DNA of 64,000 bases from Octopus sinensis (Eukaryota), in assembly GCF_006345805.1 (NCBI RefSeq), contig NC_043015.1:50964001-51028000 (forward strand). The letters run 5' to 3'. How positions within the stretch are numbered: position 1 is the stretch's first letter; each line of letters starts with the position of its first letter. Position numbers and translations under genes: made by a program. Shown in pieces: positions 2,261 through 63,100 of the stretch. The notes beneath the pieces are model-generated. The model searched no databases, was not told the origin of the DNA, and worked only from the letters and a program-made list of their open reading frames with translations.

Positions 2261-5019
2261 ATTATTATTATTATATTATCATCATCATCATTATTATTAT
2301 TGCTGTTGTTGTTGTTGTTGTACTGATATATGGTTATATTTCTCAAGAATGCTTAAATTCTGAAGATTTCTGTTACAACTTCTGAGACCTTTATTTTCAT
2401 TTTCGACAAAAGAAAGAAAGAAAGAATAATAATGATAATAAAATAGAAAATATTGATGATAATAATAATAATGATAATAATAATAATATTGATAATAATA
2501 ATAATAATAATAATAATATTGATAATAATAATAATAATAATTATAATATTGATAATAATATTAAATAATAATAATGATAATAAAAACAGAGGAAGAAATA
2601 AAGAAAACTCCTCTTTATACAGAAGAATATTTGTGGAGCAAAGAAATGCAAATGAATGTTGTTTTGAAAATAGTGATTCCATTTCTATATCATGTTATTT
2701 CTAATTTTTCCAAGAATTTAGAAATGATTCTTTTCCGATAGAATTTTGTAAACTTGTTCTTTCTTTCTTCGTTCGTTCGTTCTTTCTTTCATTCTTGTCT
2801 TTTATCATTCCCTATTTCATTTATATGTAGATTAAGGACAGAAAATAATGGAAGGATATAAAAGAAAAAGAAAAAAAAAACACCCCACCAAAAGAACAAA
2901 AACAACAGAATTTCTTTCTGCTATTTCTATGGGGAAAAGCTTTTCCATTTCATACAATTTATAAAAGTATATGTTTTCCTCCATGAATATTTAATTGTAA
3001 CAGTCACAACAACAACAACAACAACAATAATAATAATAATACTAAGCAAAGAACACAGTTGAGCTATTATTATTATTATTATTTTTATTATTTTTTTTCT
3101 GTTATTATTCTATAGTTTCCCTTCGTATATATTTATCTGTCGTTTCCACCAAACCATTTCCTCGTAGCTGGGCATTATTCTTACAACGAGTGCACTAGGA
3201 AATGTTGCGAAATTTAAACCGGCTCACCAAATGCGGAATACGATCAATTCTTGTGCCACAGCAAGCTGTCAACGGACCTCTGTGTGTACATGTGTATGCA
3301 TATGTATGTGTATGTATGCGTGTGTGGTGTGTGTGTGTGTATGTGTGTTGTCTTGCAATGGATCTATTGGACCTTGAAGCTGGCAATTAGTTCTAAGCTC
3401 TCCTTTTGTAGAATTTCTTTCGTAGAATTTATGCCGTGGCATGCTTCTTCACCGTTACTTTGCATCGGCGTCATCATCATCATCACCGCCACCACCACAA
3501 CCACCATTATCATCATCATCGTTTCGTTTGGTCACTTGAGATGAATTTAATGAAGTCTGGTTGTTTTCTTTGGGTTTTTTTTTCTATACATATATTATAT
3601 ATATTTTTTTTATTATTCCTTCGACAAGTCTGTCAACAGCAACAATTTAAAAAGCTTCTCCCAGAAAGTATTTCTGTATTTTTCTACAAGGAAAAATAAC
3701 TTGGTGTCATGTTCTCTTCGTGGCTTTTAAATGCACTAATGAACCACCACACTTTGAGTACACCGACACACATGCACATGTATTCAAACACATGCACATC
3801 CACACATATGCATGCATTAACACACACATGCACCTGCGCACACATACATGTATGCGTTCACACATGCATGCATTCACACTCACACACAAATACATGCATT
3901 CACACACATGCGCATTCACACATATGCATGCATTAACACACACATGCACATGCGCACACACACACATGTATGCATTCACACTCACACACAAACACACGCA
4001 TTCACATTTCTATGTGTGTGTTTATGTGTGTTTAGACACACACATATAATATATACCTGCGCATTGATCTAATCAATCTTAGCTGGCCTGCAAAGGCCAT
4101 CAGCATATTCCACTTCCTCCAAACCAATCCGATAGACTACACACGCACACACCACACACACACACACACACATGTATAAAATATAATATATACACATAGA
4201 CATGCATATATGAAATATAACACACATACACACACACGTTTATAGAAGCATACACACACACCCTGCATGCATGTACATACACATTGCATTATTTCTTTGT
4301 TTGTCTTTTGCAATCAAAAGTTACCCAGTAAAATGGATCATTTCTGAGAAAACACTAATTTCTTCCCAAAAAAGGAAAAAAATATTTTAAAAAAAGTTTC
4401 AATTTTTCTGTTTTTTTTAAAAGAAATTTCTTTTTTAAAAACTGAACGTTTATTGCATGGCTGCAATGCTTTCTTTTTTTTTTGTCTGTGCTTTCTTTTT
4501 TTTTGTTTTTTTGTTTTTTTTTTTCTTGTTGATTCTTCTAGAATAGTGACTAGAAATATCAAGGAATAGATGAAACAATTGAATAAGTAAGGTTTCTTCT
4601 TCTTCTCTCCTCCTCCTCCTCCTCCTCCTTCTTCTTCTTCCTCCTCCTCCTCCTCCTCCTCCTCCTTCTTCAGATGTCACAATAACCTTTTGGTATTGTC
4701 GCTTGTTTATTGGAAGATTTCAAATCGGGATCTAATGGTTCAAATGTAGCTTCTGCCTGGTTTGGTTGTGGTTTTTTTTAAAATTTTTTTTCTTGCTTTT
4801 TTTTTTTGTTTAGTTTGTTCTGTTCTGTTTTGGTTTTGTCTGATAATTAACTTGATATCGGAAGTCATTGTAATTATTGGTGATTTTTTTTTAATGATGT
4901 ATTGCTTTGAAACAGGAACATAAACGCTGAACACTTGTGTTCACCACTCATTCAGCCATAAACATTTATTGTTTTAAAAGAAAGAAATAATTAATTGACG
5001 TGTACTGAGTGTGTACACA

Positions 5020-13734: not shown

Positions 13735-14270
13735 CATCATCATCATCATCATCATCATTTAGCGTCCGTTCTCCATGCTAGCATGGGTTGGACGGTTTAA
13801 CTGGGGTCTGTGAAGCCGGAAGGCTTCATCAGGCCCAGTCAGATTTGGCAGTGTTTCTACGGCTGGATGCCCTTCCTAATGCCAACCACTCCACGAGTGT
13901 AGTGGGTGTTTTTTACGTGCTACCTGCACAGGTGCCAGACAGAGCTGGTACAACGGCCACGAACGGATGGTGCTTTTACGTGTCACCGGCACGGGGCCAG
14001 GCGATGCTGGCAACGGACACGAACGGATGGTGCTTTTACGTGCCACCGACACGGGGCCAGACAGAGCTGGCAAACGGCCACGAACGGACGGTGCTTTTAC
14101 GTGCCACCGACACGGGGCCAGACAGAGCTGGCAAACGGCCACGAACGGACGGTGCTTTTATGTGTCACCGGCACGGGGGCCAGCCGAGGCTGGCAACGAA
14201 CATGAACGGATGGTGCTTTTACGTGTCACCGACACGGGGACCAGACAGAGCTGGCAAACGGCCACGAGCA
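13735..14270 (-). mobile_element. RTE-like LINE 3' UTR copy with ~59-bp tandem repeats
   Basis: Reverse complement closely matches 1440-1738; repeated gaacggayggtgcttttacgtg units. Confidence 0.85.
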
Positions 14271-18139: not shown

Positions 18140-18800
18140 CCGGCCCATTTAAGAGTACCCTTCAATCATTGGCAATAAACAGTGTTTGAGAAGACTAGTT
18201 GAGTCAAATGAGGTCATTGTCATAGCTGATGTCAGTACCACCTGACTGGCACCTGTGCTGGTGGCATGTAAAAAGTACCATTTGAGCATGGTTGATGCTA
18301 GTCCCAATGGACTGGCTCCTGTGCTGGTGGCACATAAAAAGCACCATATGAATGTGGTCATTGCTAGCACCACCTGACTGGTTCCTGTGCTGGTGGCATG
18401 TAAAAAAAAACTCATTCGAGTGTGGTCATTGCCAGTGCTGCGTGACTGGCTCCTGTGCCGTGGCATGTAAAAAGCACCATTCGAGCGTGGTCATTGCCAT
18501 TGCTACCCGACTGGCTCCTGTGCTGGTGGCACGTAAAAAGCACCAAACAAGCGTGGTTGATGCCAGTGCCGCTTATCTGGCCCCATACCAGTGGCACGTA
18601 AAAAGCACCATTCAAGCATGGTCGATATCAATACTGCCTGACTGGGTCCCATGCTGGTGGTATGTAAAAAACACGATTCAAGCGTGGTTGATGTCAGTAC
18701 TGCCTGTCTGGCCCCATGCCAGTGGCACGTAAAAAGCACCCACTACACTCTTGGAGTGGTTGGCGTTAGGAAGGGCATCCGGCTGTAGAAACCTTGCCAG
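18140..18800 (+). repeat. LINE-tail-derived ~60-bp minisatellite (ggtggcaygtaaaaagcacca units)
   Basis: About 8-9 diverged tandem units ending in the cactacactc...ggaagggcatcc tail motif. Confidence 0.8.
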
Positions 18801-28756: not shown

Positions 28757-29305
28757 CTATGTGTGTGATGTATGTATGTATGTATGTATAGCTATGTGTG
28801 TGATGTATGTGTGTATATATATAATATATATATATGTATATATGTGTGTGTATATATATATGTATATGTATGTATATATATACATATATATATGTATGTA
28901 ATATATATATGTATATAAATGTGCGTGTGTATATATATATATATATATGTATATAAATGTGCGTGTGTATATATATATATATACATGTGTGTGTGTATAT
29001 ATATATATATGTATATATGTATATAAATATATATATATGTGTGTGTGTGTATATGTGTATGTATGTATGTATGTATGTATATACAAGAGGTGTATTGATG
29101 TTATACACACCAGAATACCAAAGCATTTGTAAATGGATGAGCTGGTTTGATTTTTGTTTGTTTGACTTTTTTCTCTATGGCTGGGCAATCATTGTATATG
29201 GAGGGAGATAGGGAGTGTGGGGGAGAGTAGCGATGTGTGTATGTATATGTGCAATGTATTTGCATAGTATATATACATGTGTGTGTATATATGTATGTAT
29301 GTGTG

Positions 29306-29338
<33 letters not shown>

Positions 29339-29384
29339 AGCTATGTGTGTGATGTATGTATGTATGTATAGCTATGTGTGTGAT

Positions 29385-29424
<40 letters not shown>

Positions 29425-29870
29425 GTGTGTGTATATATATATGTATATGTATGTATATATATACATATATATGTATGTAATATATATATATGTATATAAA
29501 TGTGCGTGTGTATATATATATATATATATGTATATAAATGTGCGTGTGTATATATATATATACATGTGTGTGTGTATATATATATATATGTATATATGTA
29601 TATAAATATATATATATGTGTGTGTGTGTATATGTGTATGTATGTATGTATGTATATACAAGAGGTGTATTGATGTTATACACACCAGAATACCAAAGCA
29701 TTTGTAAATGGATGAGCTGGTTTGATTTTTGTTTGTTTGACTTTTTTCTCTATGGCTGGGCAATCATTGTATATGGAGGGAGATAGGGAGTGTGGGGGAG
29801 AGTAGCGATGTGTGTATGTATATGTGCAATGTATTTGCATAGTATATATACATGTGTGTGTATATATGTG
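28757..29870. repeat. Tandem duplication, ~575-bp period, embedded in TA/TG microsatellite
   Basis: Unique block atacaagaggtgtattgatg...gcatagtatatatacatgtgtgtg occurs identically at ~29081 and ~29656. Confidence 0.9.
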
Positions 29871-57019: not shown

Positions 57020-57054
57020 CATATATATGATTGGAAATATATATATATATATAT

Positions 57055-57447
57055 AGGCACAGGAGTGGCTGTGTGGTAAGTAGCTTGCTAACCAACCACA
57101 TGGTTCCGGGTTCAATCCCACTGCATGGCACCTTGGGCGAGTGTCTTCTACTATAGCCTCGGGCCAACCAAAGCCTTGTGAGTGGATTTGGTAGATGGAA
57201 ACTGAAAGAAGCCCATCGTATATATTTGTGTGTGTGTTTGTGTGTCTGTGTTTGTCCCCCCACCATCACGTGACAACCGATACTGGTGTGTTAATGTCCC
57301 TGTAATTTAGCGGTTTGGTAAAAGGGACCGATAGAATAAATATTAGGCTTACAAAGAATAAGTCCTGGGGTCAATTTGCTCGACTAAAGGTAGTGCTCCA
57401 GCATGGCCGTAGTCAAATGACTGAAACAAGTAAAGGAATAAAAGAAT
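57055..57447 (+). mobile_element. Near-complete SINE family B copy (aggcacaggagtggctgtgtggtaag...gtcaaatgactgaaacaag)
   Basis: tRNA-like A/B boxes (tggctgtgtgg; gggttcaatccc), internal (TA/TG)n; other copies at ~9388, 26814, 36412, 48421, 52444, 59185, 59631. Confidence 0.85.
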
Positions 57448-58140
57448 ATATATATATATATATATAGTAAGATGAGAAAATAAAGAGGTAATTAATAAAT
57501 TATTATTTATTAATTAAAAAATTGACAATTTATTAATTACCTGTCTATTTTGTCATGTTATTTTAATAAATAAAATATTTATAAACCATGGTTTATATAA
57601 TTATGTTGCAGTTGAGTTTTAAATATGTCCAATGCTCTTCGTATAGGTAATTAACCAGTACTTTAATTGTTCTTCTGTTGTATCTATGTGTGTGTGCCTA
57701 TATCATCATCATCATCATTTAACGTCTGCTTTCCATGGTAGCATGGGTTGGACGATTTGACAGGTCTGGCAAACCAGACTCCAATCTGATCTGGCAGAGT
57801 TTCTACAGCTGGATGCCCTTCATAACGTCAACCACTCCGAGAGTGTAGTGGGTGCTTTTACGTGCCACCGGCATGAGGGCCAGTTTGGTGGTACTGGCAA
57901 CGGCCATGCCCAAATGGTGCTTTTTACGTGCCACCTGCACAGGAGCCAGTCCAGCGGCACTGGTGATGACATCGCTTGAATATATATATATATATCAGCC
58001 AAAATTGCGAGGATGATCCGGTTCTTGACTGAAGATTAGAGGCTTCGAATGACCAGTCCGTTTTTTGTATCATCTATTTGTATGTTTTGCGTTCTTGTCT
58101 CATTTTGTATTTTTTATATATATTTATTTATTTATATATA

Positions 58141-58856: not shown

Positions 58857-58994
58857 ATTTGGAATTCCTATGGAGTTATTATGTATTCCAGTGCTGCCTA
58901 CGACTATCCGATAACTTCTTTAGCCTGGAATCCTAGTGGAGAACTGTTTGTTGTTGGTTCCTTCAGCAGTCTTCGACTCTGTGATCGCAGCGGG
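58857..58994 (+). CDS. IFT80: IFT80 internal coding exon (138 bp): IWNSYGVIMYSSAAYDYPITSLAWNPSGELFVVGSFSSLRLCDRSG
   Basis: ttccag acceptor, gtaaag donor; similar to vertebrate VWDSYG...[30 protein letters not shown]; gene continues beyond both window edges. Confidence 0.95.
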
Positions 58995-59311
58995 GTAAAG
59001 TCTTTTATTACTTGCTTTAAATACAGAATTAACGATGCCATTAACACTTCAATTGCAGTGAATTAATTACTCTTACTTGTTGTAAATAGCTGGAAACAGT
59101 TTTTTTACCAAACATTCCACAAGAAAACTCCCACCCCTTAATATCAAATATTACAGTTTTATTTAAAATATTACAAATCTCAGTGCAGGCATGGCTGTGT
59201 GGTTAAGAAGTTTGCTTCCCAAGCATGCAAGTTGGGTTCAGTCCCATTGCGTGGCTCCTTGGGCAAGTGTTGTCTTCTATAACCTCAAGCTGATCAATGC
59301 CCTTGTGAATG

Positions 59312-59611
59312 AAAAGTGGCGCAGGCCCGCCAATACTTGCACTGGCCACAGTTGTCATCTTTCGGGAATTTAGGGGACGGACCACGTCGCCGTATCGACC
59401 GCGTGTATCTCGTGACATCCTTCCGGCATCGGTTGCGGGTACGTCCACGTGTATGTGGGCGATACCGTGAGCTTAGGAACCATAGCCGGACCCGAGTTGT
59501 TTTCCAAAAGCGTCTCAACCTCAAGGCGCATGCCTTAGCTCGGCGTTCCCCGTCCGCACGTCGCGTTCGCGCGGCGAGCGGCAGCGTCGCCGGCGGAATT
59601 GCCATTCGGGG
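59312..59611. other. GC-rich, CpG-dense block of unknown origin replacing the body of a SINE B copy
   Basis: Hand count 183/300 G+C (61%) and ~38 CpG; SINE head to the left (...ccttgtgaatg), SINE tail to the right (actgaaacaag). Confidence 0.85.
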
Positions 59612-60154
59612 ACACTGAAACAAGTCTTTTAGGCACAGAAGTGGCTGTGTGGTAATTAGCTTGCTTACCAGCCACATGGTTCCTGGTTCAGTCCCACTGT
59701 GTGGAACCTTGGGCAAGTGTCTTCTACTATAGCCTCAGGTCAACCAAATCCTTGTGAGGGGATTTGGTAGAGGGAAACAGAAAGAAGCCTGCTGTGTCTG
59801 TTTGTCCCCCGCTACCATTGCTTGAAATCGGTGTTGGTGTGTTTACATCCCTGTAACTTAGCAGTTTGGAAAAAGAAACTGATAGAATAAGTACTAGGCT
59901 TACAAAGAATAAGTCCTGGGGTTGATCTGTTTGATTAAAGTCAGTGCTCCAGCATGGCCACAGTCAAATGACTGAAACAAATAAAAGAATAAAAGAATAT
60001 ATTATGCATGTGTGTGTGTTTTCTTTTTTAGTATTCTCATTTGTGAGAGCAGTTGAGTTTATTTCAGATACTCTCATTTTAAAAATCATCTCTGGCTAAT
60101 CATTGAGAGGACATTGGTGTTGCCTTGGTGGAGGTTTGTGCTCTCTGATTGCTC

Positions 60155-60190
<36 letters not shown>

Positions 60191-63100
60191 TATTATTATT
60201 ATTATCATTATTACCTCTGCCTTAGCGAAGGTGGAGGTATTGTTTCAGTTGTGTTTGTTTGTTTGTTTGTCCGTGGACAAGATGTCTCAAGAACTGCTGG
60301 ATGGATTTGGATGAAACATTCAGGGATATTTGGCCTTGTGACTGGCACAAACTGATTAGGTTTTGTGATCAATCCAGTACTGGACAAGGATTCTGGATTA
60401 TTTTTCCTGCTTTTTAACTTAATGTTTGAGAGTACACAGGTTCATTTTTAGTATTCTTGTTTGTGAGAGCAGTTGTTCTTTACTTTAGATATTCCCATTT
60501 TAAAAATCATCTCTGGTTAATCGCTGAGAGGAGATTGGTGTTTCCTTGGTGGAGGTTTGTGCTCTCTGAGTGCTCTTGTTATTATTGTTTTTGCCACTTA
60601 CACCTTGGTGGGGCATCAGTTTTTGATGTATAGAATGTAGATTTGATGTAAGGCTAACAGTTGTTTTGCCTTCTTTTAGCTTTAGTGTATTTATATCTAA
60701 ATTGCTGCAGGTAAACAAACAGAACCGACTTGGCTCTGCAGCTTTGGAGTGAAATTCCTTACTTGCCATTGCAGGCTTTACAGATCCATTCCATTTTACA
60801 GGTGAGATTCATCATAAAAGATAAATAAATAGCAACAATGAAGAGATGGGTCAGTGAGGCTGCTTCATCATGGTTGCTTCATTTACTAGAAATAGCTGCC
60901 AAGTACCTTATATCAAACTCTTCTTATTTCTTTATTGCCCACAAGGGGCTAAACATAGAGGGAGACAGACAAGGACAGATAAAGGGATTAAGTCAATTAC
61001 ATCAACCCCAGTACGTAACTGGTACTTAATTTATCGACCCCGAAAGGATGAAAGGCTAAGCTGACTTTGGCGGAATTTGAACTCAGAATGTAACGGCAGA
61101 CGAAATACTACTAAGCATTTTGCCTGGCATGCTAACATTTCTACCAGCTCACCGCCTTATTATCAAACTCTTCTGTCTTAAGGAGAGTGACGTAGTGGAC
61201 AATATAGTTCCATATGGTCACTTATGGTAGTGCATTGGTCACTCATGGTTTTGTCTTGTGTTTCTTTTGTGGTCAGGCACCTGATTTCCTCCTTATAATA
61301 CCAGTGCACATAGTGGCTCACCACTGAGTGCACTCATCCTGTGTCCACTGGATCCACCTTGTGTGACACCTGTCGACATGGCAAGGGCTTTGACCATCAC
61401 AGTTTATTTAATGCTGGTCAGCCCAGGGGTGCTTTTCATTTCTGTCGGTGAGCATGGCTGTGGTGACCAAAGCAAATACATCTTTTCTCACTCCACTTTT
61501 TCTTTTCACCTCACATCCTCCTTTAACGATGAACATTAAATGAGAATAATAATGATGACCAGATGCCCACAGCTGTAACATCTATGATCATGCATCTACT
61601 TGATCAGGGCTGACCTTGGGATAAACAATAAAAGCAAGATGTAGTGTATTGTTATTTTGAGTGTATTTGGCCAGCCATTGCTTCCTTTAAAAGCCTCCCA
61701 ATATTAGCTTTGGTTGTTTAATTGGAGTGTATTAGTATAGAATGTTACAAGATAGAGATTTGAATTAAGTAGAGCAATTTTTAAGATATTTCTCTTTAAT
61801 TCTCTCCAGAAGAAGGGTTCTCAATGATATACAGAATTGGAACATGGCCGAATAGAATTGTTGGCATTCTGTTGAATTAAATCTATTTGTGTCTTGACTG
61901 AAATCTGATTACAATTCCAGTGAAATCTTCTGTTTAATATGATTGATGTTAGAACTGTAGGAGACGATGACCATGTTGTAATGAGAGCCGAGAATAATAC
62001 TTGGTTCTTTCAATCAATACAAGTATTTAAAAGTTGAAGAGGTTATCACAAGAGAAAGAGAGAGAATCTGCATTAAGGACTAAGCTCGAATGATGTTCAC
62101 ATAAGAGGTTGTAGGAAAGAGGCATTATTATTTGTAGAGCGCTTGGCAAGTTGCCGTACGTCAGGCTGTAGCCGTGTGTCATGTGGCTGTTGTTGCTTTC
62201 ACTCAAGTGTGCCTCTGACATAGCTTATTTCTCAGAACAGAAAACGTTGACCTTTATGTCCCATTGTTTTTGTTATTAGGATCTTGGATGGTGGATGGAT
62301 AAGCTTACAGACTTACAGACAGTTAACAAATGTTATTGTAGTTATTATGTAGATGCAGGCATGGCAGTATGGTGAATGTATTTGTGTCTCAATCACATGG
62401 TAATGGTTTCAGTCCCACTGCATGGCAACTCGGGCAGTTGTCCCCTACTATAGCGTGTGTGCGCGCACACACATATACACACACACACACACACACGATC
62501 ATGCATCCGCATACACACATACACACACATACATAGCCATGCACTCTCTCTCTCACACACACACATGGTCATAAACCATCACATACACACACATGCACAC
62601 ACACACACACGCACACATGATCATGCAACCTCACACACACACTCAGAGCCATGCACTCTCTCTCTCACACACACACACGGTCATGCATGCTCTCACACAC
62701 ACACACACACATAGCCATGCACTCACACACACATACACACACACACACATTTGTGTGTATGTGTGTGTGTGTATGTGTGTGTGTGTATGTGTGTGTGTGT
62801 ATGTGTGAGAGAGCATGGCCTAGTGGTTAGGGTGTTGCATCCATGATCTAACAATCTAGCCATCGTGATTTCAGTTCCTGCACTGGGTGGTGCATTTTGT
62901 TCTTGAGCAAAACACTTCACCTCACACTGCTCTGAAATCACTTTGACTCTTGATGTGTGATGCACCATGCACCTGTTCAGGTAACATCAATTTGATGGGA
63001 GTGAGTGAACTAATGTACAGCTCCTACATTTGTTCCCTATAAACAAATAATTTCTGCAGGTCGTTTGGTAAAAACTGAACACTCCTACATTGTCTTTGAA

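Follow-up and report, generated by a model that had tools for sequence, protein, structure and literature searches.

A GC-rich block within an IFT80 intron

The question raised by this locus is how some 300 bp of GC- and CpG-rich DNA came to lie within a SINE of an octopus intron. An earlier note, made from the letters alone, had considered horizontal transfer, contamination, an artificial insert, a chimeric assembly join and template switching during SINE reverse transcription. The ~61% GC and ~38 CpG it reported for 59312-59611 in an AT-rich window (the window being the whole 64-kb stretch of DNA analysed) correspond to measured values of 61.0% and 39 (observed/expected 1.4), with 37.2% GC for the window. 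This CpG count is the highest of any 300-bp stretch in the window, the runner-up being 32 at 13951, where the GC record (62.3%) is also found rather than in the block. CpG-rich repeats are not rare here, given that the GC/CpG-rich stretches 13850-14270, 1400-1700 and 18300-18800 consist of ~55-65 bp tandem units within another repeat family. The composition jump of the block is thus real, yet the block is not foreign.

The exon upstream matches PDB IFT80 residues 212-257 (E 4e-17) and is 100% identical to an Octopus vulgaris protein named IFT80 homolog (P0008). It stops 317 bp ahead of 59312, confirming both the gene and the spacing first proposed, and the block lies ~320 bp into the intron that follows. 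The features of the locus are as follows.

58857-58994, + strand: IFT80 coding exon, 46 aa (PDB match and O. vulgaris identity)
59183-59313, + strand: old SINE head, recipient of the insert (alignment with 8 other copies)
59314-59340, no strand assigned: low-copy sequence of about 27 bp at the left joint (depth of just 150 and 322 in bin 59290-59323; X1 contig 2 runs across it)
59341-59459, edges approximate, no strand assigned: fragment of a second, very abundant GC-rich repeat (summed depth in X1 and X2)
59460-59475, no strand assigned: 16-bp linker, apparently without high-copy cover (the 28S part by itself accounts for the depth of bin 59460-59493)
59476-59613, + strand: sense 28S rRNA fragment, 138 bp (RNA contigs X15, 568 nt, and X19, 321 nt; LSU motif upstream)
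59614-59626, + strand: resumed SINE, 13 bp, tail motif or internal motif (alignment to other window copies)
59630-59998, + strand: second full-length SINE directly behind (80% identical to the copy at 57054-57451 in an alignment of 400 columns)

The right part of the block is a 28S rRNA fragment

Part of 59000-59900 occurs in 20 of the 24 public sequencing runs, the best share being 0.52 of words, while six RNA runs contain 0.08 each; the 28S piece alone would give 68/871 = 0.078. Contigs from four of the 24 runs were aligned to the block (DNA runs X1 and X2, RNA runs X15 and X19). In both RNA runs examined, contigs cover exactly 59476-59613, with 3 differences each in 138 positions, and run on into loose ends that match between X15 and X19 on both sides. 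The upstream loose end contains a motif that falls within LSU_rRNA_eukarya (Rfam) in 3 of 4 viral-contig loci and in 19 of 20 metagenome loci, the latter control covering 20 of the 115 motif-bearing loci. The motif ends at about position 3136 of 3401 in RF02543, just ahead of a large variable loop, and the piece starts at ~3137. It begins where the final conserved hairpin closes, ahead of the 3' expansion segment, and extends into that segment; we take this region to be D12/ES39 and the hairpin to be helix 97. The first 16 nt of the piece fit the LSU profile of post-motif sequence, with an equal score at 30 of 127,968 window sites. Hence, 59476-59613 is part of the last 28S expansion segment.

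The Rfam search proposed by the earlier note returned no meaningful match, in scans of either block or window. A custom profile of 84 LSU ends gave no match to the piece either, with the control L001 detected. Both miss it, as expected of a piece made up almost wholly of expansion segment, which corresponds to the variable loop of the model. Plain local alignment of the piece with three unrelated LSU ends was not significant.

The 28S piece is multi-copy in host DNA: its summed depth at 59494-59527 is 136,269 in X1 and 295,085 in X2, or ~2,900x and ~6,800x that of the flank, summed depth not being copy number. This high depth in both host DNA runs indicates that the piece is likely the octopus's own rRNA. 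The two ends of the piece are predicted to form a 12-pair stem (pair probabilities near 0.9), which 11 of 400 shuffles also reach; this mildly suggests that the template may have been a folded RNA unit.

The left part is a second abundant repeat

The left repeat reaches a summed depth at 59358-59391 of 672,134 (X1) and 1,544,746 (X2), making it ~5 times deeper than the 28S part, and a contig with different upstream letters begins to fit at 59341. The earlier impression that the block contains no known repeat thus does not hold, as 138 bp are 28S rDNA and ~120 bp belong to this second high-depth repeat. The latter may be rDNA spacer, satellite or part of a transposon. It has zero cover in RNA runs X15 and X19, a weak hint that it is not mature rRNA. 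Comparison with 121 retrieved loci gave nothing beyond chance, and folding revealed no stable structure relative to shuffles (z +1.65 and +1.46). Searches of Pfam, PDB and two protein libraries with a 45-aa query, itself a weak probe, found no relevant protein relative. A suspected resemblance to a LINE endonuclease motif received no support, the six phmmer matches being NHL-repeat proteins and apparent translated CRISPR arrays. The proteins of the latter kind (P0004-P0006) give false phmmer matches to short Arg-rich queries.

Around the linker, 59455-59466 agrees at 10 of 12 letters with the X15 loose end, in rRNA that precedes the 28S breakpoint by 18-29 nt, a borderline similarity noted by eye and post hoc. 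It could have guided a template switch.

Junctions with the SINE

Alignment with 8 other copies confirms the left flank as a SINE head up to 59313, within which we assume an A-box-like motif at 59192-59202 and a B-box-like motif at 59235-59245. The best-fitting junctions are 59313/59314 on the left and 59613/59614 on the right. The SINE does resume at 59614, as had been claimed; its assignment to the tail was less secure, since an internal motif fits about equally well. The tail agrees with 59614-59626 at 11-12 of 13 letters in five copies (12/13 in two of the five), and the internal motif, which usually lies 14 nt past the left junction, does so at 10-11 of 13 in six copies; extended to 17 letters, agreement is 11-13 for the tail and 12-13 for the internal motif. 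SINE letters have been lost at the site, though not necessarily the ~235 bp middle said to have been replaced: judged from the copies in the window, at least 14 letters are gone, and the loss may be 14 bp or the whole middle (about 210-245 bp; the middle spans 208 and 243 bp in two other window copies).

No perfect target-site duplication is present at the block edges, in line with the first reading, but an imperfect direct repeat (6 of 7 letters, 59308-59314 and 59614-59620, read from the sequence) does flank the block. Both of its halves are ordinary SINE motifs. Inspection of the sequence found no poly(A) tract in the block. An 8-letter word at 59318-59325 fits the 5' end of the SINE family and may be chance or a third tiny template.

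Reality of the joints in sequencing runs

The unique intron flank has a depth of 47.3 in X1 and 43.4 in X2, with 1 and 0 differences in 260 bp. X1 contig 2, 165 nt long and with 3 differences, covers 59234-59398; the joint divides it into 80 letters of SINE and 85 of block. Because this contig crosses the boundary between SINE head and block, the left joint occurs in natural DNA, and the block was not inserted artificially. The contig has a depth of 22.7, as compared to 47.3 for the flank, a half-depth that fits presence on one haplotype. No spanning contig is among those listed for the inner (59459-59476) or right (59613/59614) joint in X1 or X2, nor for the left joint in X2. Contigs drop rare variants within high-copy DNA, hence missing spans prove nothing. 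Block letters 59373, 59549 and 59558 differ from nearly all read depth.

Coding potential and consequences for the host gene

Frames are open on both strands of the block, as first noticed. They are at chance level and carry little weight: among 3000 dinucleotide shuffles, 1096 have at least one open frame and 154 at least two. No codon-position pattern was found in the block, and none of its six frames contains a Pfam family, in agreement with the earlier failure to recognise a protein. The block as a whole folds no better than shuffles (z -0.58 and -0.08). It contains no acceptor-like splice site and just three weak donor-like sites, and an effect on IFT80 splicing appears unlikely. Given its position ~320 bp into the intron and the lack of an acceptor-like site, the insert is likely to be without function.

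Three further features were seen elsewhere in the window. Positions 430-1150 look like the 3' portion of a LINE reading frame that has decayed. Two similar ~135-bp copies lie ~420 bp apart at 60025-60160 and 60445-60580. Within 28830-29650, paired matches ~580 bp apart (28836/29417, 28978/29557, 29032/29611) suggest a tandem duplication.

Origin of the block

An origin outside the octopus, whether by horizontal transfer, contamination or artificial insertion, was prompted by the abrupt rise in GC and CpG and by a length of 300, which is a coincidence as far as the data go. The BLASTn comparison proposed at the outset yielded no donor: searches of plasmids, phages and E. coli with the block gave short chance pieces at best (35 bp, E 0.02) or none. 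Exact block patterns had 0 matches in viral contigs, metagenomes and 185,579 prokaryote genomes; two viral matches of 17-18 bp did not extend. The rRNA identity is eukaryotic, and both main parts are thousands-fold deeper than the flank in both DNA runs, which is inconsistent with a stray foreign piece. With the left joint also present in public run X1, we regard this origin as extremely unlikely. It is very improbable that the inner or the right joint stems from a chimeric assembly or a consensus error. Such an artefact would accord with the absence of a piece spanning these joints among those listed, with the best run containing just 0.52 of words, and with the three letters that depart from nearly all depth; against it, one short-read contig carries the left joint together with 85 bp of block, the flanks are colinear SINE sequence, and contigs lose rare variants inside high-copy DNA. 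The proposed chimeric join is excluded at the left joint.

The relative age of the parts separates the remaining explanations. Compared with the majority of the 11 other SINE copies of this window, to which this measure is confined and beyond which a closer subfamily may exist, the SINE head differs at 24 of 120 positions, and at 13 of 120 its letter is private (11-20%). For the 28S piece, comparison with present-day rRNA contigs gives 3 differences in 138 positions (2%; Fisher p 2e-6 against 24/120 and 0.004 against 13/120). Joint insertion predicts equal decay, and the head is 5- to 9-fold more diverged; the block thus likely arrived long after the SINE.

We consider that the block is probably, albeit with considerable room for doubt, a two-template patch left by repair of a DNA break in the old SINE rather than a product of horizontal transfer. 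A germ-line break within the SINE would have been followed by repair synthesis copying 28S rRNA, possibly as RNA, given the pairing between the ends of the 28S piece. Synthesis would then have switched to the second template, and end joining would have closed the break with deletion of 14 bp or the whole SINE middle. Several features speak for such a repair: poly(A) and a perfect duplication are absent, SINE sequence was deleted, and the 300-bp length falls in the 73-414 bp range of known patches. The donor is rDNA, with no source in the 64-kb window (no further match to the block >18 bp, E 0.65). Conversely, no clear microhomology was found, the 6/7 direct repeat could be a decayed target-site duplication, and the 28S piece lies sense to the SINE, as in retrotransposed chimeras.

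The sense orientation would fit a single retrotransposition, in which a LINE reverse transcriptase started on the SINE tail and passed to 28S rRNA, a second RNA and finally the SINE head. For two of five copies, 12 of 13 letters of the right flank agree with the SINE tail, and human 28S/LINE-1 chimeras, in the accessible part of their description, are 83% sense with a median of 269 nt (PMC13174262). However, head and 28S piece should then share one age, as expected of any chimeric retrocopy formed with the SINE, and their divergence (24/120 or 13/120 versus 3/138) is unequal by 5- to 9-fold. Three switches would be needed, just 12 tail letters are left, and an A-rich tail is absent, rendering this course of events unlikely. 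Template switching as first suggested thus survives in the joining of several templates, while the far more diverged head argues against switching while the SINE itself was being reverse transcribed. It would also be possible for a LINE to have inserted an already joined RNA (repeat plus 28S) into the old SINE at a later date with a 7-bp target-site duplication. The 6/7 direct repeat (59308-59314/59614-59620) and the resemblance of the 28S piece to a whole folding unit agree with such an insertion, but poly(A) is missing, ordinary SINE motifs explain both repeat halves and SINE letters were lost at the site; we judge it improbable.

The joint between repeat and 28S might also have pre-existed, the left part being the 3' end of a 28S-inserting element or part of an rDNA-derived satellite copied in one piece. 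Elements targeting 28S genes are described as widespread in the accessible part of PMC10946416, the 28S part begins sharply at the end of the conserved hairpin, and the 10/12 match of 59455-59466 to rRNA just upstream of the breakpoint, post hoc and by eye, would fit as well. This seems quite unlikely in view of the 16-bp linker having no high-copy cover, the ~5 times greater depth of the left part, the absent A-rich tail and the lack of a protein relative for the left part. In a bolder version, the left 160 bp would derive from the 3' end of a cephalopod element not yet described, which inserts into 28S rDNA just past the final conserved hairpin that precedes the 3' expansion segment, and the intron would have captured an escaped element-28S junction; we think this very unlikely.

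Significance and comparison with known systems

Under the favoured explanation, repair of a break, the block records an ordinary, already known kind of event in a natural multi-template case. It is one more dispersed rRNA fragment, intronic and with no sign of function, and carries little biological weight; it would gain in importance should the left part turn out to be a new element that targets rDNA. If polymorphic, the block is usable as a presence/absence marker. Rfam overlooks GC-rich expansion segments of cephalopod rRNA, which resemble foreign DNA when set in AT-rich introns, and such blocks should be compared with host RNA before transfer is invoked. We found no report of rDNA fragments in octopus introns in the literature searched, in which subscription journals were thinly covered.

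The known systems are compared here on the accessible portions of the reports cited. SINE28 and dispersed 3' LSU fragments are described in mammals, at 65-437 bp and sometimes within another element (PMC4994717). The octopus piece is similarly sense, derived from the 3' region of 28S (start ~3137/3401) and located inside another element. Unlike SINE28 in that report, it ends inside an expansion segment, is joined to a second repeat and is known at one locus. The block contains a dispersed 3' 28S fragment but is not assigned to SINE28, a dispersed multi-copy family transcribed by Pol III, since it has neither an A-rich tail nor a perfect target-site duplication. The human 28S/LINE-1 chimeras resemble it in that a retroelement is joined to a 28S fragment in sense orientation and of comparable length (PMC13174262), whereas no LINE follows the octopus piece and the SINE around it seems to predate it by far.

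Templated insertions provide the closer framework for the favoured repair of a break. In yeast mutants, two-fragment patches make up 5-7% of templated insertions and rDNA is named among the donor classes (PMC11724301). The octopus block shares the multi-fragment patch and the rDNA donor with these complex insertions, although the yeast events, as given in that source, are induced in mutants and often consist of two inverted pieces of one locus, while the octopus block is a natural allele. Class 2 templated sequence insertions are described as double-strand-break patches of 73-414 bp (PMC5110952). The block differs from those in the human screen, as far as that source describes it, in having at least two templates, high-copy donors of the kind that screen excluded, and a mollusc host. 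Polymorphism, a feature of class 2, would be compatible with the depth of the spanning contig in X1 (22.7 versus 47.3 for the flank), X2 having no such contig among those listed. In its distant donor, lack of poly(A), deletion and size within range, and, the imperfect 6/7 repeat aside, in showing no clear duplication, the block otherwise resembles class 2 insertions (PMC5110952).
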